Shown piece by piece: positions 1 through 41,013 of a stretch of 41,013 bases of DNA (the first letter of the stretch is position 1; every line of letters begins with the position of its first letter). The stretch lies in the UHGV virus genome UHGV-1836508. The stretch is one strand, 5' to 3'. This stretch comes from a virus. The position numbers were made by a program, and so were the translations under genes. Under the pieces are notes generated by a model, which saw only the letters and a program-made list of their open reading frames with translations, ran no database searches and had not been told where the DNA came from.

Positions 1-958
1 CGTCTGACTCTCTGGCTACCTGAACAAGCAAGCCAGTAACACCAGAATAATCTACTGTGTAATAACGTTCACCTTCTTCACCTTCCGATCCGCTCGCACC
101 GTCCTGATATTTCATTGCGGAACCTACAACTTCTGGGATTGCTTCCAGAGCTTCCTGTGCAATGACACCAGCATAGGGCATACCGTTTTCTTTAAGCGTG
201 TATGTATAGCCGTTCATTTTACGGATGCGGTCGGTTGCATTATCGATCACCTGAATGTTGTCTTTCAGATCCCGGTCGGAATGCTGGTTAAATGCGGTGG
301 CATGACATGCACCATTAACGCTTAACATATAGGTGTTATCGGTATTTTTCTGCGCATAGAACATATAAGCGCCACCATCAACACCGACTTCATAAACAAC
401 AGGACGGCTGGAATTTCCCCATAATAACGTCGACACACCAGAATACGCCGTACCTTGCGTGTTTAGTGTCATGGTCGACCCGTGATTAGCATATTTGATC
501 TGCAATGAGTCTGTATTATCAAACTTAATAAGCGCGTTACTTCCCCGCACACCATACGACATGAGACAGTTCCCCATCTTAAGGTAACCATCACTGCCTG
601 GAAAAATTAAAGTTCCTCCGTAAAGATCACTAAAGTCCCAAAAGATACCTTTTGTCCCGTTATGTGTGACGATCCTCGTCATTGTATCTTTAGTACCATC
701 AATATTTTTTCTGGTATATATGTCACTATAAGCGTTTTCCGTTTCACCAGTCTTATTTGACAAATGCAGCTTACCGCTGAATATAGTTCCAGTTGTTGGC
801 AATGTTTTTTGATCATAGATTACATTGCAATAACCATTCCATGTTGTTTTATTGTCTACATAAGATTTTGTTGCGTAGTTTCCTTGATCGGTTTTTAATT
901 TGCTAACGTCGGATTTTAGCGTTTTGATATCATCAGGAATTACTGTCGATGTAGCCAT
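1..958 (-). CDS. tail fibre / receptor-binding protein, partial (N-terminal 319 codons; 3' end beyond window start) with intramolecular-chaperone (peptidase S74-type) motif
   Basis: Minus-strand frame is open from ATG at 958 (SD GGAAGGAAA just upstream, in-frame stop at 968-970) down to position 2 with no stop, checked triplet by triplet. Product contains SDRDLKDNIQVIDNATDRIRKMNGYTYTL...GVIAQEALEAIPEVV, the hallmark start of tail-fibre C-terminal intramolecular chaperone domains. Absent from the ORF track only because its stop lies outside the window. Confidence 0.7.
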   Translation of the reverse strand, partial: MATSTVIPDDIKTLKSDVSKLKTDQGNYATKSYVDNKTTWNGYCNVIYDQKTLPTTGTIFSGKLHLSNKTGETENAYSDIYTRKNIDGTKDTMTRIVTHNGTKGIFWDFSDLYGGTLIFPGSDGYLKMGNCLMSYGVRGSNALIKFDNTDSLQIKYANHGSTMTLNTQGTAYSGVSTLLWGNSSRPVVYEVGVDGGAYMFYAQKNTDNTYMLSVNGACHATAFNQHSDRDLKDNIQVIDNATDRIRKMNGYTYTLKENGMPYAGVIAQEALEAIPEVVGSAMKYQDGASGSEGEEGERYYTVDYSGVTGLLVQVARESD

Positions 959-967
959 TTTCCTTCC

Positions 968-1249
968 TCACATCCAGCCACGAAGTTGATGCTCAACAGC
1001 AACCGCGTATTCATCGAATAATGACGGTGTTTTCACATCATTAATGATGCGCACGTTTACAAAATATCCGTCTTCCTTAACACATACCGGTTCGCCATCT
1101 TCAGTCAGTTCTCCGGTTTCTTTGTACACGTTACCTATCACGTCAATAAGAATATCATCCTGCATCGACTCGTCATCATAATAGCCAGTGCTATCCATAA
1201 AGGCCGAAAAGTCGGCCCTGTCTTCAAATTTGAGTGTTAAATCTTTCAT
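968..1249 (-). CDS. hypothetical acidic 93-aa protein between the two fibre genes (possible fibre assembly factor)
   Basis: ATG at 1249 overlaps the upstream fibre stop (TAATG); stop at 968-970 sits 10 nt before the next fibre start. No recognisable motif. Confidence 0.5.
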   Translation of the reverse strand: MKDLTLKFEDRADFSAFMDSTGYYDDESMQDDILIDVIGNVYKETGELTEDGEPVCVKEDGYFVNVRIINDVKTPSLFDEYAVAVEHQLRGWM

Positions 1250-3615
1250 TAGATTGACTCCCCCATCTGAGCATCAGTCAATGCCTTGTGCCATATTCTG
1301 AAATTCCTGATATGACCAAATAAATGGCGTAACCCGGCTGTAGTCTGGCCTCCAATACGGATAATTGCGGAGTTCTGAATATATGACCATGTGGTTTTTG
1401 TTTCGCTGGATATACGCCCGTTACTTACTGAGCACGTAGACTGATCTGACTTTACACGCATCCCCATAACCATTTTTTCAAGCGATGCGTTTTCGTTTAC
1501 CCGTCTGTTAGCCAAACCTATATCACAATAAGGAAATCCGTCGTAATCTGTTGAACGACCGAAGCCAAGAATAATAGCCGCTCCGGTTTGATGACCGCCG
1601 GTATCAAAAACACGCGGTGCTGCATTTGGCGTTTTATACCAGTTCTTATGTACCTCACAAAGAACTGTAAAAGGAAGATTATAAAGGTTATTCTTGATTG
1701 GGACTGTCACCATATCGCTTGCGCGAGTGCTTGCAGTTATATCAGTTACAATAAATGACGAAGCACTTGATCCACCTTCCACTTGTGGAGTTGCGATATC
1801 CAGATAGTCTCCGGATACTGTGCTTGAACCTTTTACAGGAGCGTACTGAACCATCGCACCAATCATGCTCTCAGTATCCAGTGCATTAATTGTAGCCTGG
1901 AAGAAAATCCAACCAGTAGCCTCATCTTTTACTGCCTTTGAAATAATACGATTTGCAGCACCACCAGTTAGTTCAATTAAAAGTGTTGATAAATTGAGGT
2001 AAGCATCTCCCAAAAAAGTGTAAGTAGAACCATCATGATGTTCAAATCTTAAACGACACCTTATATTTTCAACATCACTTCTGACACGGCATGAAATGGT
2101 CACATATTTTTCATCACCTGTGACATCAAATCCTTTACTGCCAGAAACCGTTACGATACTAATCGCACTTGTTTGACCAATAAGAGTATCTTTTACAGTA
2201 AATCTACCATAAGTAAAATTAAAAGAATCCGTGGATATTTCTGTGAGTTCCAGATTGCTTGACTTATTCCATTTAGATGGATTTGTTGAATTAAGCAGAA
2301 GATTAGTTCTTTGCCCCTCAATAAGCAGGCCATCACGTTCAAATCGTGGCTCGTCAATGGCAGCCTCTGTCAGCACACCAGATTTATTAATATAGGTTGC
2401 TTTCGATGCGCGTTTAAACTTTACAACCTTATCGCCAGGCATCGTTATTTCATCATCACCAATAACAATCTTTTTATATGACGGCGAAAAGCCCGTAATC
2501 ATATCCAGTGAATCGTTAAACGGTATCCACACATCGGGAAGCGGCTGCAAAACTTGTTTATACGGCTCCGCAGCCTGGTTTGCATACTCTCTGGCTGCGT
2601 CTTCACTCGCTTTTGCAGCCGTCTGGCTTGCAGCGGATGCTTTCGCCGAGTTAGCCGCCGCAGTCTCGCTCGCCTTTGCGTTGGTTTCACTGGTTTTTGC
2701 AGCTTTTTGACTGTTGGCTGATGCAGTGGCAGAAGCAGCCGCCGCACTTGCAGAACCAGCTGCGGCACTCTCGCTTTGGGCTGCTGCATCCTGACTGCTT
2801 TTCGCCGCAGTTTCGCTGGCTTTAGCATTCGTTTCGCTGGTCTTCGCTGCCGTCTGGCTGGACTTTGCGTTAGTTTCACTCGTCTTCGCTGCTTTCTGGC
2901 TATTAGCCGCCGCAGTTGCTGATCCAGCTGCTGAAGTCGCAGAACCGGCTGCCGCACTCTCGCTTTCAGCTGCTGCATCCTGACTGCTTTTTGCTGCGGT
3001 AGCGGAGTTGGCGGCAGCACTCTGACTCGATTTTGCAGCTGCCTCGCTATTTTTCGCATTAGTTTCGCTGGTCTTTGAAGCTGTCTCACTCGCTTTTGAG
3101 TTAGTTTCTGATTTTTTGGCCGCTGTTGCGCTCGCTGCCGCCTCTTTAGCTTTTTGTGCAGCGGTGTTAATTATGGGAGTATTTTCTTTATACCATTCTA
3201 GGTTCTCATTGTGCTCATTAACGATCTGCGTAAGGGATTTTACGGTTAATTCCGTGCCATCTTCACGCTCAATTGTTATTTCATCCACAGCAGTCAGCCA
3301 ACTACGCATCATTTTTGAATCGGCTGACATGCGAGACATAAGCGCAGTAAAACGAGCACTAAATTGGGTCAAATCACCTTCATAGGTCGTAATTATTCTG
3401 CACGGAACATTTGTTTGGGTGCTGCCACCGTAGGCTTCAACAAGAGTTAACGAAGTGTCACTCTCGATTGATTTTATTTCATATAACTTATTATCGGGGC
3501 CAATCAATATCATACCTGGAAGGACGCCGTTCGCCGTCACTCCCCATGCTGTGCCTGTTCCCACTACAGTTTTATTTCCTTTAGTGAGATTTATTGTACC
3601 TTCCCTGTACCACAT
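1249..3615 (-). CDS. side tail fibre protein (lambda Stf-like) with Ala/Ser/Thr-rich repeats
   Basis: 788 aa directly downstream of J. Central region is built of repeated KTSETNAK / AAKSSQ / SATAA units, very like the alanine-rich repeats of lambda Stf-type fibres. ATG at 3613-3615. Confidence 0.8.
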   Translation of the reverse strand: MWYREGTINLTKGNKTVVGTGTAWGVTANGVLPGMILIGPDNKLYEIKSIESDTSLTLVEAYGGSTQTNVPCRIITTYEGDLTQFSARFTALMSRMSADSKMMRSWLTAVDEITIEREDGTELTVKSLTQIVNEHNENLEWYKENTPIINTAAQKAKEAAASATAAKKSETNSKASETASKTSETNAKNSEAAAKSSQSAAANSATAAKSSQDAAAESESAAAGSATSAAGSATAAANSQKAAKTSETNAKSSQTAAKTSETNAKASETAAKSSQDAAAQSESAAAGSASAAAASATASANSQKAAKTSETNAKASETAAANSAKASAASQTAAKASEDAAREYANQAAEPYKQVLQPLPDVWIPFNDSLDMITGFSPSYKKIVIGDDEITMPGDKVVKFKRASKATYINKSGVLTEAAIDEPRFERDGLLIEGQRTNLLLNSTNPSKWNKSSNLELTEISTDSFNFTYGRFTVKDTLIGQTSAISIVTVSGSKGFDVTGDEKYVTISCRVRSDVENIRCRLRFEHHDGSTYTFLGDAYLNLSTLLIELTGGAANRIISKAVKDEATGWIFFQATINALDTESMIGAMVQYAPVKGSSTVSGDYLDIATPQVEGGSSASSFIVTDITASTRASDMVTVPIKNNLYNLPFTVLCEVHKNWYKTPNAAPRVFDTGGHQTGAAIILGFGRSTDYDGFPYCDIGLANRRVNENASLEKMVMGMRVKSDQSTCSVSNGRISSETKTTWSYIQNSAIIRIGGQTTAGLRHLFGHIRNFRIWHKALTDAQMGESI
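2560..3140. repeat. in-frame tandem coding repeats (Ala/Ser/Thr-rich) inside the side tail fibre gene
   Basis: Reiterated gc(a/c)gc / agcgaaac / ctggct units at DNA level give repeated SETNAK-AAKSSQ peptide units; this also generates spurious ORFs in other frames. Confidence 0.7.
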
Positions 3616-28113: not shown

Positions 28114-28811
28114 TACATACGCTCCTTGTAGTAGTCGACCAGCCACACCAGAGCCTCACCAGCGTTCTCCATTTCATTACCGGTGTTAATAGCCTGCTCT
28201 TTGATGATGTTTTTTATGGTTTCTGCAACACGATCTGACGCATCGAAAGTTACTTTGAAGCGCATGGTCTGATGTTCCGCACCCACACGTTCGGTTTTCT
28301 CTCGTTTGTCGGTATCGACAGGCTCATCACTACCACGAGACAACGCCTCCAGTGCTTCAAGGTCGATTGCCGCCTCTTTTGCTAAAACCATCGAGATTTC
28401 GTCGTCATACGGGGCGATTTCAGACAGTTGATAGTCAAGTTCTGACTGAATTTCTTCAATGAAGCGTTGCAATGCGATTTGGTCGTCTTCACCGTATCGC
28501 TCGTTGTCCACCAGTGACATCTGTTTAGCTACGACATCGCTAATTTTGCCCACAGAAAGCACCGGAACCGTTGAAATTCCTTGCTCAATAGCAGCACGCC
28601 AGCGATGTTCACCGCCGAGGATTTCAAAAAATCCATCTTCAAGTTCACGAGCCAAAATTGGCTTAAAAAAGCCCAATTTTTCGATAGAACCTTTCAGTTT
28701 TTCAAAATTCTGCGCACCAACCGAATTGGTGTTCCAGGTATTCGGGCGAAGGTTGGCAACATCAACCTGCAAAATCGTGATTTTTACATCCATTTTATTG
28801 CTACAATCCAC
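28113..28811 (-). CDS. ParB/Srx-fold (ParB N-terminal domain) protein, paralogue 1
   Basis: …EILGGEHRWRAAIEQGISTVPVL… is close to the canonical ParB GERRxRAA box. Start uncertain (GTG 28811 or ATG 28793), both with weak SD. Confidence 0.7.
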   Translation of the reverse strand: MDCSNKMDVKITILQVDVANLRPNTWNTNSVGAQNFEKLKGSIEKLGFFKPILARELEDGFFEILGGEHRWRAAIEQGISTVPVLSVGKISDVVAKQMSLVDNERYGEDDQIALQRFIEEIQSELDYQLSEIAPYDDEISMVLAKEAAIDLEALEALSRGSDEPVDTDKREKTERVGAEHQTMRFKVTFDASDRVAETIKNIIKEQAINTGNEMENAGEALVWLVDYYKERM

Positions 28812-28875
28812 TAAGTAATCACTTACTTATTATAATAGCCAAATAACATACAAAAGGCACTAAGGAAAGAGGTTT

Positions 28876-30435
28876 ATGACTGTTCGGATTGTATCTAACG
28901 CAGTAAATGCGCTTATTTCTGGCGCAGATGACAAGGTAAAGCAACTGGTGCAGCAAATGTTGAGCTACGAAGTCGAGACTGGCGACTGGAAGGGCACAAG
29001 CACGATGTTCAACTGGAGTAAAAACTCGTTCCCTGCTGGCTTTGCCAAGCCTGTAGCGGCGAACTTGAACAAGGCGGGCATCAAATGTGTTCATATCCGC
29101 AAAGACAAAGCCCCGGCGCTTGGTAAACCAAATCCGGCGGTTAACCCATTCCCATACAATCCTGATTATGCGTATCAGGATCAGACTGTGGAAACACTGG
29201 TTCGAGAGGGAATGATGATTGCGCAGATCGCTACTGGTGGCGGGAAATCTAACGTTGCCTGCAAAGCAGCTGCACGTATCGGTCGAATGACATTATTTTT
29301 AACAACCCGCTCTGTTCTGATGTTTCAAATGGCCGAAAACTTCCAGAGATCCATCGACTACCGCGCCGAAAATGGCGAACCGTGGTTAAAAGACCAAAAG
29401 GTTGGAGTCATTGGCTCGGGTGAGTTCCAGGTATCACGACATATCAACGTCGCTACAGTTCAAACTCTTGCAAGTTTCCTCGAAGAACCACCACGCGATG
29501 CAACACCAGATAAAAAGAGCTACCACCTCAAACGTCGGGAGTTGGTGAAACGCTTCCTTTCAAGTGTGTCTCTGCTTATTCTGGAAGAAGCGCATGAGTC
29601 TTCAGGTTCTAATTTCTATGACATTGCCAGATTATGTGTGAACGCAGACTATCGTCTGGCGCTTACAGCCACGCCGTTCATGAAGGATTCGACGGAAGCC
29701 AACATGCGCCTGATGGCGGTGGCCGGGCGAATTGAAATTAAAGTCACAGAAAAGTACCTGATTGATCGAGGCATTCTGGCAAAGCCGTACTTCCTTTATC
29801 ATAAAGTTGCCTACAAGCCAGACGAGGCCAGAATCAAGGCCGAACTTGCCAACAAACACCTCAATTTTAGAGTTGGTATGAGCACCGCCTACCAAAAGGC
29901 TTATCAGTTGGGGATCGTGTATAATTTGGGACGTAACGAGGCCATAGTGCGCGAGGCATTGCTTTATAAGCAACATTCACTCAACTGCATGACTCTGGTT
30001 CGTCTTAAACGCCACGGGCAAATCCTGATGGAGATGATGAAGGAGTCAGGTCTTAAAGTTGATTTCATCTATGGGGAATCTAACCAGACGACAAGGCAAG
30101 CAAAGCTGAATAGTTTAGCGTCTGGTGAAATAGATGTTTTAATAGGCTCGACTATTCTGGATGTCGGTGTTGATGTACCAAGCGTTGGTGCGGTCATTCT
30201 GGCTGGTGGTGGAAAAGCAGAAGTTGAAATGAGGCAGCGTGTCGGTCGTGGCTTACGAGCCAAAAAAAATCAGGCAAACGTGTGTTTTATCACTGATTTC
30301 ATTGACATTAGCAACAAATACCTGTTGTCTCACTCTTATGAGCGAAAACACATCATCGACACCACACCTGGCTTTGCAGAAGGTGTATTGCCTATTGATG
30401 GAGCATTCGATTTTGGAGTTCTGAAACGAGATTAG
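28876..30435 (+). CDS. superfamily 2 (DEAD/DEAH-type) helicase
   Basis: Motif I IATGGGKS, motif II LLILEEAHE, motif III LTATPF, motifs V/VI …DVLIGSTILDVGVDVPS…QRVGRGLR; strong SD TAAGGAAAGAGG. Confidence 0.85.
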   Translation: MTVRIVSNAVNALISGADDKVKQLVQQMLSYEVETGDWKGTSTMFNWSKNSFPAGFAKPVAANLNKAGIKCVHIRKDKAPALGKPNPAVNPFPYNPDYAYQDQTVETLVREGMMIAQIATGGGKSNVACKAAARIGRMTLFLTTRSVLMFQMAENFQRSIDYRAENGEPWLKDQKVGVIGSGEFQVSRHINVATVQTLASFLEEPPRDATPDKKSYHLKRRELVKRFLSSVSLLILEEAHESSGSNFYDIARLCVNADYRLALTATPFMKDSTEANMRLMAVAGRIEIKVTEKYLIDRGILAKPYFLYHKVAYKPDEARIKAELANKHLNFRVGMSTAYQKAYQLGIVYNLGRNEAIVREALLYKQHSLNCMTLVRLKRHGQILMEMMKESGLKVDFIYGESNQTTRQAKLNSLASGEIDVLIGSTILDVGVDVPSVGAVILAGGGKAEVEMRQRVGRGLRAKKNQANVCFITDFIDISNKYLLSHSYERKHIIDTTPGFAEGVLPIDGAFDFGVLKRD

Positions 30436-30437
30436 TT

Positions 30438-30716
30438 ATGAGCGAAAAGAAAACAACTTATTGCCAGGTGGCATTGTCTGATAAGGCCAATGAAAAACTT
30501 GGAAAATTCCAAATAAAACTCAAAGAGAAAAAAATCAAGATGTCTAAGGCTGAAGTTATCAATGCCATTCTGGAGACGATGACTATGGCTGAATTTGACA
30601 AAGTCACATCTGCCGTTGGGGTTTCCGCTAAGACGCGTGAGAAAATCATGCGCATCTATGAAAACTCCAATATGACAAAAAAAGATCTAGAGGAAATACT
30701 GAGCAGGTTGCCGTAA
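30438..30716 (+). CDS. hypothetical 92-aa protein (Lys-rich)
   Basis: ATG 2 nt after the helicase stop, so likely coupled; no recognisable motif. Confidence 0.5.
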   Translation: MSEKKTTYCQVALSDKANEKLGKFQIKLKEKKIKMSKAEVINAILETMTMAEFDKVTSAVGVSAKTREKIMRIYENSNMTKKDLEEILSRLP

Positions 30717-30748
30717 CATTTCATATTTACCCCCTATCTACTAATTCT

Positions 30749-30784
30749 ATGATGTGCTCACTTGTTAGAAAGGAGCACATCATG
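30749..30784 (+). other. 11-bp perfect stem-loop sequestering the SD and start codon of the next gene
   Basis: ATGATGTGCTC (30749-30759) pairs with GAGCACATCAT (30773-30783); loop holds AGAAAG of the SD; the ATG at 30782 is in the stem. Confidence 0.55.
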
Positions 30785-31348
30785 AGTTGGTTAAAAGAAT
30801 TATCATTTGTTGACACCACTGGCGCTAAGAAAAATCATTCTTTCTGGAAAGTCAGCGATCCTTCTGATTTTCTTGTTGGTGCTAATGCTGCTTTTGAATT
30901 GCTTAACTTTTATCAACGTTATCCAGAAATGAAACACAGTCCACTCCTGTACAGAATAACAAACGATATGAATAGGTCTGGTTTATTATCAAGTGAGTCA
31001 GCGAAAGGCTTTTTTAGCAAAATTACGCCTCACATATCATTCGATGCAACAAACGAAATTGATTATCTATCCACGAAATCTCAAGAACAATTATCTGTAC
31101 CACCTGAGAAAAAAGAAAGACGAATTGCCAGCATTGAAAATATATCGAAAGAGCTTCGCACAACAACGTTGAGGCTGCTGAACTTTCTTACGCTGCTTAA
31201 TTGGATAGATGATCAAACATTGATTCCATCAACAGATGCGTTGGATAACAGAGTCCTTAGGCTGAACAAAAAATCGCAATTTGGTTTTGTGTTCACCAAA
31301 AAAGGTGAAGATTTAATCAAAAGAAAATATAGATTATTGAATGATTAA
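30782..31348 (+). CDS. hypothetical 188-aa protein (AT-rich accessory gene)
   Basis: SD AAAGGAG 7 nt upstream of the ATG at 30782; the track start at 30749 lacks an SD. Confidence 0.55.
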   Translation: MSWLKELSFVDTTGAKKNHSFWKVSDPSDFLVGANAAFELLNFYQRYPEMKHSPLLYRITNDMNRSGLLSSESAKGFFSKITPHISFDATNEIDYLSTKSQEQLSVPPEKKERRIASIENISKELRTTTLRLLNFLTLLNWIDDQTLIPSTDALDNRVLRLNKKSQFGFVFTKKGEDLIKRKYRLLND

Positions 31349-31354
31349 TAGTCT

Positions 31355-31384
31355 ACATGCAGGTGTATGAGAGCACCTGCATGT
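31355..31384 (+). terminator. stem-loop terminator after the 188-aa gene
   Basis: ACATGCAGGTG-tatgagag-CACCTGCATGT directly after the stop; T-run is interrupted. Confidence 0.45.
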
Positions 31385-31637
31385 GACATTCATCACATTT
31401 TTGAATGTATATACCTTCGGCTGAAAAAGATCTTGATAGGCTAAATGATATTTGTAGGCTTCGCCTCCGAAGAAATTCGGAGGATATATGCGACAATTTA
31501 TAAAAACGTGTGACCTAAGAAATATAGTAGATGATATTGCATGTGATGAAATTAGCAAAAAAGAGAAGAACAAAAACGCCAATTAACGCTATCTACCTAT
31601 AAATCTGAAGAGTTCAATAGGATGCATATCTGAAACA

Positions 31638-31673
31638 CGCCCTCGACAATACCAAAAAGATTTGTCGAGGGCG
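31638..31673. terminator. bidirectional hairpin terminator between convergent accessory genes
   Basis: CGCCCTCGACAA-taccaaaaagatt-TTGTCGAGGGCG, 12-bp perfect stem. Confidence 0.55.
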
Positions 31674-31732
31674 TCGGGCTTTCCCTATGTCTGAACGATT
31701 AAATTTTACAGCAATTAAATATTTTGTATATG

Positions 31733-32533
31733 TTATTCTTCTGGTGGCACGACAAAATCATCGAGCTTATTCTTTTCGTCTCGAAGCAACTTGATTTCTT
31801 CTTCTGTTATACATTTGTCATAATCTGTTTGTTCAGAATGGCACAGTGTAACCGCGAATGGATAGCCGGTATAGGACAGTCCCCTAACAGGTTCTAGTTC
31901 ACCGTTGTCTTTTTTCCTAAATTTGTAAAAGTCAGGAGTGTCATAATTGGTGACGCTAACAAGAGCATATTTATCATTTTCTCTTGCATACACTTCACTA
32001 ACACCTCTCGATTCGCCCAACTCTCTACTCACATATGTCGAATCACTTGCTGCATCAAACACAGCCTGACCTAATGGAGTTTTTTTTAAATCATCTATTT
32101 TCTCTTTTTCCTTCCTGATTTTAGATTCGTTTTCCAGATAAAGTTTCACACCGTTTTCTTTACATGCTAGATTTTGGCGTTCAAAACGTAATCGTTCTCT
32201 TGCCGAGTTGGCACTTTTATCCATTGTAACGAATACAATCGGGTTACGTTCACGAACATCAAAGATGTGCGCATTGAATGCGGTCGCACCTGTATAGGCG
32301 TTCAAGACGTTTTTGCCATTCACCTCTCCACATACCATATATGAATAGCTATTTTCACCTAACTGAATAGCTCGCATATTCGTGAACCGACCAGCATCAG
32401 GATCTAGCAGTGTAGAGCGAATATCCTTTTCAACTAGATCTATGGCTCGCTCTTCATCAGAATCACAACCTGTTAATAGTAAAGCCGCTATTAACAATGC
32501 TAATGAGTATTTTTTATTCACCCCATTCTTCAT
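31733..32533 (-). CDS. lipoprotein (signal peptide with lipobox LTGC), stand-alone accessory gene
   Basis: N-terminus MKNGVNKKYSLALLIAALLLTGCDSD; own divergent promoter region and downstream hairpin; AT-rich. Confidence 0.7.
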   Translation of the reverse strand: MKNGVNKKYSLALLIAALLLTGCDSDEERAIDLVEKDIRSTLLDPDAGRFTNMRAIQLGENSYSYMVCGEVNGKNVLNAYTGATAFNAHIFDVRERNPIVFVTMDKSANSARERLRFERQNLACKENGVKLYLENESKIRKEKEKIDDLKKTPLGQAVFDAASDSTYVSRELGESRGVSEVYARENDKYALVSVTNYDTPDFYKFRKKDNGELEPVRGLSYTGYPFAVTLCHSEQTDYDKCITEEEIKLLRDEKNKLDDFVVPPEE

Positions 32534-32635
32534 GAAACTTATTCCATAATCAATTTTTGGTGGAATGTACGGTTAGTCTGTCTACGCATCATAGAGATGT
32601 ATATAATGACCAAAAAAGACTTAAAAAGGTAGACT

Positions 32636-33157
32636 ATGGTTAAAGACATCACCTACGGCATACCGGCTGAAGTCTGGCCGCGAGACTACGAACATGCTGA
32701 AAACATACTTATGTTCTGGCGGAAGAACAACATTCCTGTAAGAGTCACGCTTGAAGACGGTCAGGTGTTTTGCATGTACGTTCAGGGGACAATGCCTTCC
32801 CGCAATAAGCTAGATTTATGCCCGCTTCCATATGATAAAGAAAATCGTATAAGACTCCCACTTGAGCGCATTAGCACAATTGAATCAGGTGTAATCGATG
32901 GCATTGCTCGCGAGTTCAAAGGTAGGCTAACAATACATCCAGACTATGTTGACAATCAGCCATCACGCCGTGACTTTTTTGCGATATGTCGCAAGGCTTA
33001 TCAAAACGACCAATCTATAAGGGTCTACATGACAGACGGTCGTGAAATAGAAGGGGTGTCAAGAGGCGTTGATGCTTGCCAGGTCACTCTTAAATTAGAA
33101 GACGGCAGAAAAATACTTGTTTTCTTCGATTGGGTTGAACGAATCCTTCCATTTTAA
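32636..33157 (+). CDS. hypothetical protein with two tandem Rof/YaeO-like repeats (possible Rho modulator)
   Basis: Internal duplication …VRVTLEDGQVFCMYVQG…RIRLPLERISTIE / …QVTLKLEDGRKILVFFDWVERI resembling the LTLELKDGE…RLDKITSF pattern of Rof; TATAAT at 32602-32607 upstream. Confidence 0.35.
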   Translation: MVKDITYGIPAEVWPRDYEHAENILMFWRKNNIPVRVTLEDGQVFCMYVQGTMPSRNKLDLCPLPYDKENRIRLPLERISTIESGVIDGIAREFKGRLTIHPDYVDNQPSRRDFFAICRKAYQNDQSIRVYMTDGREIEGVSRGVDACQVTLKLEDGRKILVFFDWVERILPF

Positions 33158-33168
33158 ATCTATAAGGG

Positions 33169-33198
33169 TAATAACCGGCTAAGCCCGGTTATTATTTT
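33169..33198 (+). terminator. intrinsic terminator
   Basis: TAATAACCGG-ctaagc-CCGGTTATTA followed by TTTT. Confidence 0.7.
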
Positions 33199-33339
33199 AC
33201 ATGCCATTCATTTAAAACTCTTTCAATGTCACTCTGTATAAATATATAAGGTTAAAAGCCCGAATTGATTATTTATTTAGGGAACACCTTCGACGATCTC
33301 GCTTTTATTTCTAGGACTTTCATCCCTGCAGAAAATTTA

Positions 33340-33367
33340 AAAAAAATACTTGCAATCTTTTTTCACG
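33340..33367 (+). promoter_or_regulatory. sigma70-type promoter (TTGCAA - 16 bp - GATAAT) with upstream A-tract
   Basis: -35 at 33340-33345, -10 at 33362-33367, A-rich block 33321-33338; flanked by inverted repeat ttcgacgatctcgctttt / ctcgtcgaaagcgag. Confidence 0.55.
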
Positions 33368-33452
33368 TATCGATAATTGAACTCGTCGAAAGCGAGCTAG
33401 CTAACGACAGTAAAAAATAAATTCATTTTAATTTTTCGTAAGGATGTCCATC

Positions 33453-34103
33453 ATGACTAACATTATCATTTCTAAAAAGTCCATCATTGAAGCTGCTGCC
33501 ATTGTATCCGACGAGCTGCGCGAAAAAGCAGATCTGGCAACTCAAACATATAACGAACATTATAAAAATGGTACGCACACAAAAGCAGACAAAGCAAATA
33601 TGCAAGCTGCGACCACCAAACTTGCTTACTTCATCAACAACGTCGTAAACGCAGTAGAAGACGAAAAATTGTGCTCTGTTTTCTACTATGCGATCAAAGC
33701 AAGCAAACAAGCGCCAGAAGTATTTTTCCGTGATGCAATGACTAATAGTTATTCTCTGGAAAAACTGGTTTATCTGGTTAAATCCATTAAAGCTGGAAAG
33801 TGTGTTTATTCCGTCGCTGATATGTCCGGATCTCGTGTATTCGCATTAATCGATATGATTAACGACGAGATCGAGACGTTCACAAATGGCGCTGTTTTCG
33901 ATTTAATGAATGAAGCGAAAAAAGCCAACGAAATAAAATTAGACGCAGGATACACTCAAGCCAACCAGCTTATCAATCTTTGCGAACGTCTTGGACTTGT
34001 TGAGAAAGTCAAAGGAATGGGAAGCGCAAAAGCTGGTACGCAGCAATATCGCTTTATTAAAAATGATTTCTATAACTATCTGGCTGATGCTTTCAAAGCG
34101 TAA
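33453..34103 (+). CDS. hypothetical 216-aa protein
   Basis: SD AAGGA before the ATG at 33453; own promoter and terminator; no motif recognised. Confidence 0.55.
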   Translation: MTNIIISKKSIIEAAAIVSDELREKADLATQTYNEHYKNGTHTKADKANMQAATTKLAYFINNVVNAVEDEKLCSVFYYAIKASKQAPEVFFRDAMTNSYSLEKLVYLVKSIKAGKCVYSVADMSGSRVFALIDMINDEIETFTNGAVFDLMNEAKKANEIKLDAGYTQANQLINLCERLGLVEKVKGMGSAKAGTQQYRFIKNDFYNYLADAFKA

Positions 34104-34116
34104 TTAATGGAATCTG

Positions 34117-34137
34117 GCGCCCACTATGGGCGCTTTT
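34117..34137 (+). terminator. hairpin terminator (partial, read-through to next gene likely)
   Basis: GCGCCCA-cta-TGGGCGC followed by TTTT, then SD AAGGAG of the next gene. Confidence 0.6.
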
Positions 34138-34150
34138 AAGGAGCTTAATC

Positions 34151-34381
34151 ATGTTTATTCTTATCGCTGGCGTTAACGTGCGCAATGAATATTTTGTTAA
34201 TCGCATCGCTGGGATCGCTGGTTACGCTGGGCGCTCAGTCGAGTTTATCGATGAAACAACGCGTAAAATTGATTTATTGAGCGACCAGGAGCGAAAAAAA
34301 GCAGACGTGAACGACGCTGATATATTTTTAATGTTAAAAGCGTTTGTAGAAATGGGATTTAAAATCAGTTTACACAAATAA
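34151..34381 (+). CDS. hypothetical 76-aa protein
   Basis: SD AAGGAG 7 nt upstream; followed by a strong terminator. Confidence 0.5.
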   Translation: MFILIAGVNVRNEYFVNRIAGIAGYAGRSVEFIDETTRKIDLLSDQERKKADVNDADIFLMLKAFVEMGFKISLHK

Positions 34382-34387
34382 AATCGA

Positions 34388-34410
34388 GCGCCCATAGTGG
34401 GCGCTTTTTT
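34388..34410 (+). terminator. intrinsic terminator
   Basis: GCGCCCA-tag-TGGGCGC then TTTTTT; exact reverse complement of the hairpin at 34117-34133. Confidence 0.8.
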
Positions 34411-34434
34411 CGTTTCCAATACTCCCACCATAAC

Positions 34435-34456
34435 GCGCCAATGATGGCGCTTTTTT
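34435..34456 (+). terminator. second tandem intrinsic terminator
   Basis: GCGCCA-atga-TGGCGC then TTTTTT; further weaker GC hairpins follow to about 34580. Confidence 0.65.
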
Positions 34457-34758
34457 ATTGTCTTTGACTCACTCCAACAACATAAAAATAAGCGCCAAAA
34501 TAACGCCATAGACGCGCTTTTATATCCTTACCAGTACATACCCATTACTTAGCGCATTAACGCGCTTAAATCGCGTTATATTGCGTTATGGTGTATGGTT
34601 AATCATTGGCTTTTATTCTTGCTATGTGATCCGCGTTTATTTGTCGGCGCAGATCGGCATTTTGTGTTGTTCTGTGTCCGCTCGCATATGATTGCCACGT
34701 TGGGCAACGTGTACGCGCTTACAGTGATTTACCCACGGATTCACATAATCACATAGCG

Positions 34759-34995
34759 AAAGCTATCTGGATGGCCCAGGGGCTGAAACCCCCACCAGCG
34801 ATACCCCAGCGCCGCTACGCAATTTCTGGCGCGATTCCGGGTTTCTCCCGCTCAGTTTTCTACATAAAGGCGACCCCCGCCGTTTCCCGAAAAAATCCTG
34901 GCCGTTTCCCGTCGGCTCATGAATACGTTCCTCGCCGTTTCTGAAAATTTCCCTGCGGCAGCTGGTGGCTATAGAGAAAGGGCCGTTTCTGGCCC
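34759..34995. repeat. iteron array 1: about 6-8 direct repeats of (G)CCGTTTCC(C)-type units
   Basis: gccgtttcccgaaaaaa (34878), gccgtttcccgtcgg (34901), cgccgtttctgaaaat (34933), tttccctgcgg (34950), gccgtttctggccc (34982) plus degenerate copies; non-coding. Confidence 0.75.
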
Positions 34996-35004
34996 TCTTC
35001 TCAG

Positions 35005-35487
35005 TTACACGCCATCAAGGATGTGGATGCGGTTGCTTGCGTATACATTCAGCATAAAGTTAGCGCAAAACAGTTTCCATGTATCAACGCCAGCGGTATA
35101 CGTAATGTTTTTGCATTTAATCGCATTGTTGGCGATCCGCATCCCCTGCGATACTGCTTCATCGTCGGAAAATTTGAACGACGATTGAGTTTTAATCCAG
35201 ACAGAAATCTGCGTAGCGAACTCAATCAGCTTGGACTGGCAGAATCGCCCGGAGCGCACCGGAAAGACGAACGTTCCGAATCCAGAATTTACCACATACG
35301 CTTTCTCAAATACCCGCGAGTAACGACGATTGCCAATGATGTCGCGTGCAATAATGCATTTTTCTTGTGCTGACAGTTCTACCGTCTCATTGTCGCGCCA
35401 TGCACCAAGTACTCGTTTTTCAATGTCAGAGAACGTTACAGCGATATTGCCATGTGCGGGTGCGTTTACAGTAGCGATAAAATTCAT
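35005..35487 (-). CDS. hypothetical 160-aa early-cassette protein A
   Basis: ATG with SD AAGGAAA; own promoter and shared leader element. Confidence 0.6.
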   Translation of the reverse strand: MNFIATVNAPAHGNIAVTFSDIEKRVLGAWRDNETVELSAQEKCIIARDIIGNRRYSRVFEKAYVVNSGFGTFVFPVRSGRFCQSKLIEFATQISVWIKTQSSFKFSDDEAVSQGMRIANNAIKCKNITYTAGVDTWKLFCANFMLNVYASNRIHILDGV

Positions 35488-35508
35488 GATTATTTCCTTA
35501 TCGTAAAT

Positions 35509-35562
35509 AACAAATTGTTTTCTTGTTGGTGTTAATTATCGTTGTACGAATAAGGCGTCAAA
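35509..35562 (-). promoter_or_regulatory. promoter (TTGACG - 15 bp - GATAAT) plus conserved leader element for gene A
   Basis: Minus strand reads TTGACGccttattcgtacaacGATAATtaACACCAACAAGAAAACAATTTGTT, then SD and ATG. Confidence 0.55.
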
Positions 35563-35662
35563 GTGGAAAGTTGCGGTAGCCGGACGAGAACAGGTGGGTT
35601 TGTCGGTTGCCTGGAGGTAAGAGGTTGGTGTTTTTAGCCTGCGGGAAACAGGATGGTCATTT

Positions 35663-35686
35663 AAGGCCACCAGCATTGGTGGCCTT
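35663..35686 (-). terminator. hairpin (terminator or processing site) after gene B; contains a Chi octamer
   Basis: AAGGCCACCA-gcat-TGGTGGCCTT; near-identical copy at 36134-36157. Confidence 0.45.
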
Positions 35687-35691
35687 AGTCT

Positions 35692-35973
35692 TTAGTGGAG
35701 CAGACCGATGTCGATGGTATCCCCTGAATCATCCACACGGATCATCAGCATGGCGAAGGCGTTTAGTGGATAGCTTGCGTGCCATTCAGGGAAGCGGTCA
35801 TCTCGCATGAAGTCGGCAATGTCGTAAACGCATCCCTCAAAGTGGAAGAATCGCGTGCTTACCTGCTCGTCATAATCCACATGATCCATTTCTTGCTGTT
35901 CTGTTTCCGGCAAGTCCAGCCATGATTCAAGGAATACATTTTGTGCTTTAGGGGTAATGGTGAAATCAGTCAT
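35692..35973 (-). CDS. small strongly acidic early-cassette protein B (93 aa; DNA-mimic-like composition)
   Basis: ATG at 35973 with SD GAGGA (the longer track ORF has no SD). About 22 Asp/Glu against about 5 Lys/Arg. Shares a D(I/A)ADFM(R/D) segment with gene F. Confidence 0.55.
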   Translation of the reverse strand: MTDFTITPKAQNVFLESWLDLPETEQQEMDHVDYDEQVSTRFFHFEGCVYDIADFMRDDRFPEWHASYPLNAFAMLMIRVDDSGDTIDIGLLH

Positions 35974-35992
35974 GAGCATATCCTCACTGCGT

Positions 35993-36024
35993 AAACATGT
36001 TGTTTTCTTGTTGGTGTAATTATC
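35993..36024 (-). promoter_or_regulatory. -10 GATAAT plus conserved leader element for gene B
   Basis: Minus strand GCGATAATtACACCAACAAGAAAACAACATGTTTAC. Confidence 0.5.
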
Positions 36025-36133
36025 GCAGTGTAGATAAGGCATAAAAGAAGTTAATACAGGCTGAATACACAAGAAAGGTTCTGGAAGTTGATAGCCAGGT
36101 TTCAAACTAACCTTCGGTTATTAAAAGTCATTT

Positions 36134-36157
36134 AAGACCACCAATGCTGGTGGCCTT
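36134..36157 (-). terminator. hairpin (terminator or processing site), inverted copy of the 35663 element; contains a Chi octamer
   Basis: AAGACCACCA-atgc-TGGTGGCCTT, followed on the minus strand by a U-rich tract. Confidence 0.45.
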
Positions 36158-36308
36158 AATAATTATCGCCCGATTACGCTAAGGATCTTTTCCTCAACTG
36201 ATTTGTTGTTGCGACTAAACTGCCTTGCGTATCTGATGACAGAAGAGGCGTTTTGCTTTCTGACCATCTCGGCTCTTTCCTTCAGGCGTTTCTTGAAATC
36301 GCCCATAT

Positions 36309-38479: not shown

Positions 38480-38662
38480 GCCGCCGTTCCTGAACCGGCA
38501 TCGAGCCTTTTCCCGAAATCCACACAGGCAACTCGACCGTTTCCCTGAAAATCCCCAGCCGTTCCCCGAAGGCAATCCAGCCGTTTCTGTAGCGGGATGC
38601 AGCCTTTTCCCTGCGGCGACGCTCCCGTTCCTGAAAATGGACATAGCCTTTTCCCTGGATGG
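38480..38662. repeat. iteron array 2: eight direct repeats of (A)GCCGTTTCCCTGAAAA-type units at 20-23 bp spacing
   Basis: Copies start at about 38484, 38504, 38537, 38557, 38578, 38601, 38624 and 38645; the region has only low-complexity ORFs. Confidence 0.8.
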
Positions 38663-38699
38663 CCCGAAGGCTGACCGAAGGGGTGGAAATAGGCGTTAC

Positions 38700-39690
38700 G
38701 GGGGACGAAAATTATGGCTTGAATTTATACGAAGAAAGTAGCGATACCCCTCCTTCCCTTCCCACTTATACCTCCCACGAATTTTCTCTCTTATGTGGGC
38801 ATAAACCTTCCCTCTGATAACGCTCTATACGGCGAGTATTCCTTTGGGTGAAATGGGTGGTTTGTTCTTTCTACCGGCATATGTGGTTTCGTTCTTCTTG
38901 AGGTGGTTCTTCTCTGTGTTTTCGTCTGGGTTGTTCTCGTCGTTTTGGTGACTGTTCTTCTCCGTGTATGGAGTAATGGCAGGTGGGCGATTGCTTTCGT
39001 TATTGTGTTTGAGTTGTTTGTCTGGAGTGCGTGAAGGGCTTTTGTAGTTATTCGTGTATTGGGTAATGGCGTTTCCCGTGATTGTTATGTTTCGTGTCTT
39101 TTGGGATTGAGAGAAACCTTGCGGTTACAGGCTTCGTTGGGGTTTCAGTGATTCTGGTGTTTCTTCGCTGTTTGGGTAATGGCGTGTCGTGGGTATCGCG
39201 CGTATGGAAGTTTCGAATTGCCTGTGAAAGTTAGGTTGGTTGTCCGGTAGCCTGGGAAGAAGAGGTGGGTCTTTTCGGTAGCCTGCCATAAAGAGGTTGG
39301 TTGTTTTTGGTAATGGCATATGTGTTATTTAGTTGTTTTGTTATACCTGAAAATAAGTTGTTTATATGGTTGTGTAACGCAACGGGAGCGATTTTGAGCG
39401 TGTGTTTTTGTTGGTAGTGTGTTGAGTCGTCTGTGGTGAAATTTGGACGCTGTGGCGCTATCTGCTGCGTGGGATTACGGGTATAAGAAGTGATGTGTGA
39501 AAACGTCAATTTTTTAGACCAAATCGGGTGAAAGCGTTGACATTTCGTTGATCTGTTGTTCAGTTGTTTTCTTATTGGTATAAACAACTATAACCTATTG
39601 ATATTTAAGGATGTGATTGCAGGTATAGAATGGGGGTAGTGGCGATCAACGGATTCTTATAGAAAAGAATCAAATTGTGACCGCCATTAT
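38700..39690. other. ~1-kb GT-rich (plus strand) non-coding tract with dispersed GGTAATGGC repeats
   Basis: No plus-strand ORF of 60 aa or more; minus-strand ORFs are low-complexity with TTG start; GGTAATGGC-like motif at about 38965, 39063, 39175 and 39309. Confidence 0.6.
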
Positions 39691-39697
39691 CAATGTT

Positions 39698-40432
39698 TTA
39701 CTTAGTTTTGTTTAGCAGAGAGAGAATTTCATCACTAATTTCACTCGCCTGTTTGATAGCCAATGCAGTTACCTCTTCTATGGTTGGTGACTGTTGATGC
39801 TCATGTTTGGTTTCAGTTATGACAATGTGTTCTTCACCTGAATTTGCGCATAGTGCCGCATTGACTATAAGGTTTGAGTAAGAATTTAGCAGAGCACTGT
39901 TGATAAACGCTTTCACGGTATTACTGTCTGCACCAAATACATCTTTTCTGACCGCTTCAGCCTCACAGCGAACCCCTGCAGCAACATCGTGAAGAACATG
40001 TATGGCCTTGGGGCTTGTTTGTTCACAGTACTCAATCATTATTGTCGAATTGTTCTGTTCAACAAATGATCTGATGCCTGACGATTCACCCATAGCATCG
40101 AAGGCAGCGTGACCCGCACTAGTAGAGATATCTTCATAGAGTTCTTCATCGCTATCTTTTTCTTCAGGTGTCGAGGTGTCTTCATCGTCGTAATAGATAT
40201 TGCCTTTAATCAGTGTTTTGGACACTTGATATAAACAATAAGAGACAAGATTTAAGCATTGGATTTTAGCTGTATTGTCCTTTGTCGCCTCGCTCTTCAG
40301 TTCTTTCGCTTCTTCAGTAAGGCTGTTGATAAGACTTTGTATTTTTTCCAACGCGTTAGGTGCACACTCAGCGTTGTCCATAAAGAATTTATAACCAGTC
40401 CCAGGGATTTCTAAACTTTTCAACTTTTTCAT
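39698..40432 (-). CDS. hypothetical 244-aa protein
   Basis: ATG start with SD-like AGGAT upstream; acidic central region; no motif recognised. Confidence 0.55.
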   Translation of the reverse strand: MKKLKSLEIPGTGYKFFMDNAECAPNALEKIQSLINSLTEEAKELKSEATKDNTAKIQCLNLVSYCLYQVSKTLIKGNIYYDDEDTSTPEEKDSDEELYEDISTSAGHAAFDAMGESSGIRSFVEQNNSTIMIEYCEQTSPKAIHVLHDVAAGVRCEAEAVRKDVFGADSNTVKAFINSALLNSYSNLIVNAALCANSGEEHIVITETKHEHQQSPTIEEVTALAIKQASEISDEILSLLNKTK

Positions 40433-40477
40433 TTCTTTGATAATCCTAAAAACAAACTACCAATGCTTTAATATCTG

Positions 40478-40777
40478 TTACCAGTTCCAGCACTCAAGCC
40501 CTTCAACAACCGGTGCGCCACAATCAAAATGTACAGAGTCAAAGCCTACATCAAGTACCTTCTGAATGTTCGAAATCGCGCCCTCGGATATACCATATCG
40601 ACGCAAGTTATCTTTCCAGTCATCGTCCTGTAACCCGGCGTGAACTATGCAACCGTACTCAATTTGTGAAACCCAATCCAGCTCATTGCTTGCGATCATG
40701 AATCGGCGAGCATCTTCCTCTGATGTATGAGATGAACTGATCAATGCCACCTGGTAGGATTGAGTAATATTTAACAT
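40478..40777 (-). CDS. hypothetical 99-aa acidic protein
   Basis: ORF overlapping the upstream gene stop; no motif recognised. Confidence 0.5.
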   Translation of the reverse strand: MLNITQSYQVALISSSHTSEEDARRFMIASNELDWVSQIEYGCIVHAGLQDDDWKDNLRRYGISEGAISNIQKVLDVGFDSVHFDCGAPVVEGLECWNW

Positions 40778-41013
40778 CCCCTCTCCCCGTTTGGAAACAA
40801 CTCATTCGCCGTAGTGGATATAACCTCCCAATTAACGCCGACATCAGCGTTATGGCATTGTCTGATTTTTTGCATCACCTGTACGCATTGTTCATCAGTG
40901 AGATCTGTCCTTACTTCAGCAATATCTTCTTTGTGCCACATAACCATGAGTAAGGGTTCGTCTTCTGGATAGTTTTTCAGTTTCTCGATGATTTCTTTTG
41001 CTGTTCCAAACAT
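40771..41013 (-). CDS. hypothetical 80-aa acidic protein (start at or beyond window end)
   Basis: ATG exactly at the window edge; the upstream region is not visible, so the N-terminus may be longer. Confidence 0.45.
   Translation of the reverse strand: MFGTAKEIIEKLKNYPEDEPLLMVMWHKEDIAEVRTDLTDEQCVQVMQKIRQCHNADVGVNWEVISTTANELFPNGERGC

Follow-up and report, generated by a model that had tools for sequence, protein, structure and literature searches.

The window studied here is the whole 41,013-nucleotide (nt) stretch of UHGV virus genome UHGV-1836508. Between positions 30438 and 34410, from the end of a helicase gene to a pair of tandem terminators, it carries an AT-rich interval of six small genes, which an earlier note had read as an island of horizontally acquired accessory genes. 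Comparison with related elements makes it probable that the interval is a composite of core backbone and one cargo slot, and not one acquired island, with a putative envelope protein as cargo and a putative regulator of the FljA family. Our alignments show the segment 30717-32635 as the sole truly accessory, hypervariable part of the interval, and the genes for a protein of 92 amino acids (aa), the FljA-like protein (173 aa) and a 216-aa protein as syntenic core of the enterobacterial SSU5 supergroup.

Over 28800-36200, the sequence shares 99% identity with Escherichia phage Cyrano, 95% with phage PhiR41_1 and 78% with Salmonella phage SSU5. By megablast, 747 plasmids of PLSDB were related, from Klebsiella, Escherichia, Enterobacter, Yersinia (pMT1), Salmonella (pHCM2), Citrobacter and Cronobacter. 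On this nucleotide evidence the window belongs to the supergroup of phage-plasmids of the SSU5/pHCM2/pMT1/pKpn type; the SSU5 supergroup and its variable gene repertoires have been described by Pfeifer et al. (PMC7969092). The syntenic region was compared in 13 relatives of seven genera: Cyrano, PhiR41_1, SSU5, pHCM2, the Y. pestis plasmid pMT, K. pneumoniae pDD521.1, four E. coli plasmids, and plasmids of E. fergusonii, Enterobacter, Citrobacter and Cronobacter. Gene counts were obtained by tblastn against the PLSDB plasmids, in which the family comprises about 830 enterobacterial members, and 14 elements were sampled to compare the slot neighbours and the FljA-like genes.

The helicase gene to the left of the interval was found in 1005 plasmids, 153 of which are from Acinetobacter and form a related but distinct group. 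Similar numbers were obtained for the 92-aa gene (788), the FljA-like gene (831) and the 216-aa gene (815, of which 773 at >=80% amino-acid identity), so that half of the six genes occur in 95-100% of the about 830 relatives, and in the same order. A 76-aa gene was found in 416 plasmids, a 188-aa gene in 178 (79 at >=90% identity and 99 at about 40%) and the gene for a 266-aa lipoprotein in only 61. In all sampled relatives the order is helicase, 92-aa gene, variable segment, 173-aa-type gene, 216-aa gene and terminators, with a 67-aa gene, the 76-aa gene, both or neither in front of the terminators. On alignment, presence/absence polymorphism of the kind expected for a moron is confined to 30717-32635 and is not seen for the 92-aa, FljA-like and 216-aa genes. 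The comparison of relatives that the earlier note had proposed as a check thus went against acquisition for these three units, and left the slot as polymorphic. The genes and signals of the interval are listed below, with folding energies and z scores (relative to shuffled sequences) for the hairpins.

30438-30716, plus strand: 92-aa gene (open reading frame, ORF; start 2 nt past the helicase stop)
30717-32635: variable cargo slot (edges of homology to relatives)
30748-30789, plus strand: hairpin over the start of the 188-aa gene (-24.5 kcal/mol, z = -6.45)
30782-31348, plus strand: 188-aa gene, cargo (ORF; phrog_13473)
31351-31387, plus strand: terminator-like hairpin without U-run, directly 3' of the 188-aa stop (-24.7 kcal/mol, z = -4.96)
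31463-31631: putative recombination junction or scar within the slot (blastn break relative to PhiR41_1, L003)
31637-31674, minus strand: terminator-like perfect hairpin of 13 base pairs (bp), 3' of the lipoprotein gene (-30.2 kcal/mol, z = -6.58)
31733-32533, minus strand: 266-aa lipoprotein gene, cargo (ORF; lipobox LLTGC)
32636-33157, plus strand: 173-aa FljA-family gene (PF03614)
33165-33198, plus strand: terminator-like hairpin with U-rich tail after the FljA-like gene (-15.5 kcal/mol, z = -2.9)
33350-33377, plus strand: putative sigma-70-type promoter of the 216-aa gene, TTGCAA-16-GATAAT (consensus scan and conservation)
33453-34103, plus strand: 216-aa gene (ORF; 219 aa from the upstream ATG at 33444)
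34116-34134, plus strand: weak hairpin between the 216-aa and 76-aa genes (-14.1 kcal/mol, z = -1.8; direct repeat D5)
34151-34381, plus strand: 76-aa gene (ORF; phrog_1585)
34386-34406 and 34435-34450, plus strand: tandem intrinsic terminators closing the rightward unit (-15.5 and -10.7 kcal/mol, each followed by U6)

The borders of the slot are well defined. In nucleotide alignments, homology to the relatives ends at 30688-30720 and restarts at 32642-32645. The relatives have 486-2749 bp at this site with one to four differing genes, and in close relatives the 188-aa and lipoprotein genes are replaced by other genes. The modules found in the slot are the 188-aa family, a pair of 191/199-aa and 117/118-aa genes, the 266-aa lipoprotein family (on the opposite strand), a 197-aa gene, and a 140/154-aa lipoprotein gene. 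Alignment to PhiR41_1 by blastn stops at 31462 and restarts at 31632. PhiR41_1 has two additional genes here (191 aa; a 117-aa secreted protein) where the window has a unique junction of 170 bp (31463-31631), which from this alignment is probably the product of a deletion or of recombination. An unannotated 82-aa ORF on the minus strand (31334-31582) is probably no gene. In all 14 sampled elements the slot gene adjoining the FljA-like gene encodes a lipobox or signal peptide, and the proteins belong to four families. In two plasmids of E. coli/E. fergusonii, 4 nt at the FljA-like start codon are shared by both genes, implying a single operon.

The low GC content described in the earlier note was confirmed. 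It is 38.5% in 30438-34410 versus 46.8% in the rest of the window; the segment of 3973 bp with the lowest GC content of the whole 41 kb begins at 30411, and 0.19% of segments of this size are equally low. When calculated in steps of 200 bp, the edges are sharp, with a drop around 30400 at the helicase stop and recovery around 34600. The proposed check of codon usage, made here as GC by codon position, gave the same picture: mean GC at third codon positions (GC3) was 0.377 for the ORFs of the interval versus 0.483 for 40 other ORFs (Mann-Whitney p = 8e-4), and GC at first and second positions (GC1 and GC2) was reduced too. The most deviant GC3 values were those of the 188-aa gene (0.33) and the lipoprotein gene (0.32), versus 0.48 elsewhere, and the slot as a whole has 37.1% GC. 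In the relatives, slot GC was 0.37-0.38 with 188-aa-type cassettes or with the 197-aa gene alone (L004), but normal (0.47-0.54) with the 140/154-aa lipoprotein. The GC content of the FljA-like gene follows the backbone (0.44-0.52 in the relatives). A GC content of 0.31-0.41 was seen in every relative for the 216-aa and 76-aa genes and for the spacer in front of the 216-aa gene, over backbones that span 47-54% GC; among these are SSU5, pMT1 and pHCM2, whose ParB and helicase genes have 51-55% GC. Since relatives with 51-54% GC show the same AT-richness in these two genes and the spacer, this property is old and conserved and does not indicate recent acquisition. Judged by composition across the family, low GC marks foreign cargo for the slot only and is elsewhere an old, conserved trait.

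These data bear directly on the view that the whole 4-kb interval is one acquired, moron-like island of independently transcribed units, probably with functions in defence, anti-defence or exclusion. Low GC and GC3 extend over the entire interval, the ORFs named in the earlier note all exist, the genes are small and lie on both strands with a hairpin in each gap, and all proteins but one are without annotated function, which speaks for this view. Against it stand the presence of three of the six genes in nearly all relatives in the same order, the equal AT-richness of the same genes in GC-richer relatives, and the mapping of the variation to one slot of 1.9 kb. The postulated promoters and terminators of each unit were borne out in part: every intergenic gap has a stable hairpin (-10.7 to -30.2 kcal/mol, z from -1.8 to -6.6), but a clear U-run follows just three of these (33165-33198, 34386-34406 and 34435-34450), and sigma-70-like sites occur at chance level (15 found versus 15.5 expected). 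A defence or anti-defence role found no backing either, as a PADLOC-DB scan of all proteins of the interval and of ten alternative slot proteins of relatives gave no meaningful match; the two marginal ones were SspC (E = 0.005, 12.5 bits) and an endonuclease effector (E = 0.034). We therefore regard a single acquired island as very unlikely. The claim of acquired accessory genes does hold for 30717-32635, whose two genes occur in 178 and 61 of the about 830 plasmids and have the lowest GC3, but not for the core genes. It is also conceivable, if rather unlikely, that the AT-richness outside the slot is kept by selection, for example for silencing of the H-NS type in the lysogen or as a regulatory or unwinding-prone region beside the neighbouring control region. 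Its persistence in the 216-aa and 76-aa genes and in the spacer, while synonymous divergence elsewhere is saturated, fits such selection, as does the conservation of a promoter and leader in the AT-rich spacer. On the other hand, repeats typical of origins were not found inside the interval, H-NS binding or a replication function is conjecture, and the low GC1, GC2 and GC3 could simply reflect the amino-acid composition of old genes.

The composite reading that we prefer explains the interval as follows. The 92-aa, FljA-family and 216-aa genes form a core, syntenic backbone, and low GC in the 216-aa and 76-aa genes and in the spacer is ancestral. Its slot here holds an AT-rich cassette of a 188-aa orphan gene, with a ribosome-binding site enclosed in a conserved hairpin, and an oppositely oriented lipoprotein gene. 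The content of the slot and, separately, the FljA-like allele are exchanged by recombination among backbones with 97-100% identity elsewhere. The lipoprotein would most likely remodel or mask something in the envelope of the lysogen, in lysogenic conversion or superinfection exclusion, and the FljA-like protein would most likely act in the way of canonical FljA, by binding an mRNA leader and blocking translation. The slot resembles phage morons or cargo hotspots in its deviant composition, its presence/absence polymorphism, the hairpins that bracket it and the non-structural nature of its proteins. Unlike typical morons, it is a fixed site between two core genes with an exported protein in every sampled element; the remainder of the supposed island is core, and independent promoters were not borne out by the site scan.

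The longest ORF of the 188-aa gene starts at 30749 (199 aa). We prefer the 188-aa reading, because the 199-aa ORF would start inside the 5' arm of the hairpin 30748-30789, the 3' arm of which holds AGGAG and the ATG at 30782. This hairpin, which has no U-tract, buries both the Shine-Dalgarno sequence AGGAG (30771-30775) and the AUG (30782). It is retained in homologues of 41% identity from Klebsiella (L007, 3864-3906) and Enterobacter (L014, 2042-2087), including a compensatory swap from G-C to C-G, which argues that the structure is functional. It is likely an element of translational control or RNA stability, and may be a translational switch. Both cargo genes are flanked by stable hairpins without U-tracts. 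The 188-aa protein itself is classed as cytoplasmic; it has no signal peptide and no match in Pfam, PADLOC or the Protein Data Bank (PDB). A deep HMMER search among 1.84 billion representatives returned about three clusters at 50% identity, by which the protein is an orphan confined to this plasmid family.

The 266-aa lipoprotein is predicted to have two cystatin/NTF2-like alpha+beta domains with a helical linker between them. Apart from the lipid Cys, four further Cys are invariant, and residue +2 is Asp, which hints at inner-membrane retention in this allele. Its matches are the generic cystatin/NTF2-like fold and uncharacterised phage lipoproteins, and the 117/118-aa secreted protein of other slots is distantly related to its N-terminal domain. 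Lipoproteins that block superinfection are known from phages, such as Llp of T5 and Cor of phi80/N15, both of which act at the outer membrane. The 266-aa protein would resemble these as an accessory lipoprotein encoded by a prophage, presumably periplasmic (lipobox, conserved Cys pairs) and encoded at a position typical of lysogenic-conversion genes. It differs from Llp and Cor by its much larger size, its two cystatin/NTF2-like domains and the Asp at +2, and neither its sequence nor its fold matched any named exclusion protein. A role of the slot cargo in exclusion or in the envelope is plausible.

The 173-aa protein had been labelled Rof-like in the earlier note. This identity was rejected, since a ROF match was not obtained in Pfam at E <= 0.1, and the label is replaced by PF03614, the repressor of phase-1 flagellin, which matches over its full length (269.9 bits versus a cut-off of 24, E = 1e-80, model positions 1-170 of 170). 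The protein also matches phrog_1444, a 'transcriptional repressor' (E = 5e-98). In the C-terminal half (residues 116-164) there is weak similarity to Hfq/LSM, with secondary matches to Hfq (E = 5.5e-4, residues 122-164) and LSM (E = 0.018), both under the cut-offs; this similarity to Hfq/Sm-like domains is consistent with RNA binding. A comparison of the N- and C-terminal halves by hhalign gave a match of 22 columns (E = 0.022), which is at most suggestive of a duplication.

The 86 database relatives of the 173-aa protein lie mostly on contigs of about 105-115 kb. Identity is 35-36% to named plasmid-borne FljA genes and 40% to the chromosomal FljA of Atlantibacter. Like FljA of the Salmonella fljBA operon, fljA(z66) of pBSSB1 and the fljA-like genes of E. 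coli, the protein has the full-length domain, a similar length (173 aa versus 176-179 aa in canonical FljA) and the same motifs: 24 invariant columns are common to the phage-plasmid and the canonical clades (P0082-P0086) and cluster in the three motifs YG..EVWPRDY, P.RRDFF.IC and DWV.RI. Unlike canonical FljA, it belongs to a separate clade on phage-plasmids of about 105-115 kb, has no flagellin gene upstream, and is conserved on plasmids of non-motile Klebsiella and Y. pestis. Its upstream neighbour is the divergently oriented lipoprotein gene, whereas the canonical FljA gene (P0084) lies 92 nt downstream of a Flagellin_N/Flagellin_C gene. A tblastn search with FliC gave no match in the window or in any SSU5-type phage record.

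FljA-like copies are intact in 14 of 14 sampled elements with ratios of nonsynonymous to synonymous substitution rates (dN/dS) of 0.09-0.35, by which the gene is under purifying selection. Three E. coli alleles, 22-34% apart, are found on elements with flanks of 97-100% identity. Identity to PhiR41_1 is 99-100% up to 32650 and then 63-69% inside the FljA-like gene, the break coinciding with the start codon. Allele and slot cargo vary independently of each other. As read from these alignments, allele diversity is due to exchange by recombination and not to positive selection.

Two loci elsewhere carry FljA-family genes in other surroundings. In an E. coli chromosome (L020, CP125919.1, 386158-396682), an FljA-like gene of 48% identity lies amid small fragmented ORFs, among them ORFs of 92 and 76 aa; judging by this gene content, the locus looks like a degraded SSU5-type element integrated in the chromosome. 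In Atlantibacter hermannii (L018, 2239-4531), a canonical pair of flagellin and FljA genes is found in a chromosomal island beside genes for an SMC/AAA ATPase and a phage-type integrase. This neighbourhood suggests that the canonical pair is itself on a mobile element.

Characterised FljA proteins, including the plasmid-borne FljA(z66), block translation of fliC mRNA (PMC2652032). The protein of the phage-plasmids could accordingly be a lysogenic-conversion factor with host fliC mRNA as its sole target; flagellin would then be turned off to save energy or to evade flagellotropic phages or immunity, and the adjoining exported protein would be a second surface factor of the same module. This is a possibility that we consider unlikely on balance. 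The full-length PF03614 domain, the invariant motifs and the activity of the characterised members speak for it, most of the hosts are motile (Escherichia, Salmonella, Enterobacter, Citrobacter and Cronobacter), and the gene is always beside a gene for an envelope protein, sometimes in one operon, which mirrors the fljB-fljA operon. However, identity to canonical FljA is just 35-40%, the gene behaves as a core gene and not as variable cargo, and a literature link of the SSU5/pHCM2 elements to motility or FljA was not found. In Klebsiella, 341 FljA-like matches compare with 346 of the helicase, and in Yersinia 62 with 62, all of the latter on Y. pestis plasmids. Klebsiella and Y. pestis are non-motile and make no flagella. 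Since the gene has no flagellin partner and is kept intact in these hosts, a target common to all hosts is somewhat likelier than fliC alone, and we give about even chances to such a target, for example a conserved mRNA of the host or one that the phage-plasmid itself encodes. A broader proposal would make the FljA-like protein a core RNA-binding translational regulator of SSU5-type phage-plasmids, including pHCM2 of S. Typhi and pMT1 of Y. pestis, that controls gene expression of the element itself or flagellin synthesis in hosts across Enterobacteriaceae, with the chromosomal phase-variation repressor FljA as a domesticated offshoot of the family and with the variable exported protein next to it as its partner in a hitherto unrecognised module for reprogramming the host surface. 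This proposal is doubtful, and we put it forward with reserve.

Some observations weigh against the composite reading and the role it assigns to the FljA-like protein. That the gene is conserved in Klebsiella could be due to its frequent arrival from motile hosts instead of a role independent of flagellin. The window holds no counterpart of the E. coli fliC leader, the best score lying within the range of shuffled sequences, where 41 of about 108 kb were covered and recognition may be structural. The leader of the 216-aa gene showed no one-to-one co-variation with the FljA-like alleles, in a test that is confounded by linkage, and so this leader gains no support as a candidate target. The rule that an exported protein adjoins the FljA-like gene is drawn from 14 sampled elements and a heuristic test for signal peptides. 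In the consensus scan, the promoter sites of the individual units had no statistical support. No paper was found in our literature search on the FljA-like gene in SSU5/pHCM2/pMT1 elements or on a link of these elements to motility.

Among the promoters, conservation backs just the one upstream of the 216-aa gene, where the sequence TCGATAATT is invariant in eight elements of four genera (Escherichia, Salmonella, Yersinia and Klebsiella). Scans of the interval with Rfam and for tRNAs gave no match. The 216-aa protein is predicted to consist of a long helical hairpin, a helical domain and a C-terminal winged-helix-like element. The 92-aa gene (phrog_1466, E = 1e-45) was found by tblastn in eight of eight relatives and is annotated at the same position in six further ones. 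Its product has no significant match in Pfam or PDB, and the sequence pattern suggests a small DNA-binding protein of the ribbon-helix-helix type. Families for the 92-, 188-, 216/219- and 76-aa proteins or the lipoprotein were not found in NCBIfam or Pfam, and PDB sequence searches with five proteins gave no match.

The 76-aa gene had no tblastn match in SSU5 and is unannotated in three relatives (L014-L016). A 32-nt sequence is present twice, at 34106-34137 and 34377-34408, with 78% identity between the copies; the former holds the hairpin that follows the 216-aa gene, the latter the first of the tandem terminators. This repeated terminator brackets the 76-aa gene, consistent with the occurrence of that gene in only about half of the family. 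Several relatives have a 67-aa gene between the 216-aa and 76-aa genes (L003, 8182-8385; L005, 5733-5936; L002, 7427-7630) that is absent from the window. Its label in SSU5, 'MIT family metal ion transporter', looks unfounded, as there is only a weak match to DUF6899.

Just outside the interval, a 39-nt hairpin element occurs twice (35656-35694 and 36127-36165, 79% identical) and encloses a 137-aa gene (35692-36105, minus strand); there is also a further pair of repeats about 485 bp apart (35509-35563 and 35994-36047). The 137-aa gene is missing from PhiR41_1 and from two E. coli plasmids, which carry the 39-nt element once, so that this site is a second presence/absence cassette. Further stretches of low GC (0.39-0.42) are found at both ends of the window (1-2500 and 38500-41000), and a strong local excursion of skew at 38500-40000 (GC skew up to +0.29, AT skew down to -0.32).

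Taken as a whole, the region is a case of fairly ordinary temperate-phage mosaicism, and databases already list its proteins under 'hypothetical' or 'transcriptional regulator'. Phage-plasmids of the SSU5 type are very common in clinical E. coli and Klebsiella, in Salmonella Typhi (pHCM2) and in Yersinia pestis (pMT1), and most of their genes are uncharacterised. Separating the exchangeable slot of 1.9 kb from its conserved neighbours points to the entry site of lysogenic-conversion cargo in these elements, with an exported envelope protein in all that were sampled. A relative of the flagellin repressor belongs to their conserved core even in hosts that lack flagella. This near-universal FljA relative without a flagellin gene, together with the exported protein encoded beside it, is what we consider of most interest for the biology of the family.

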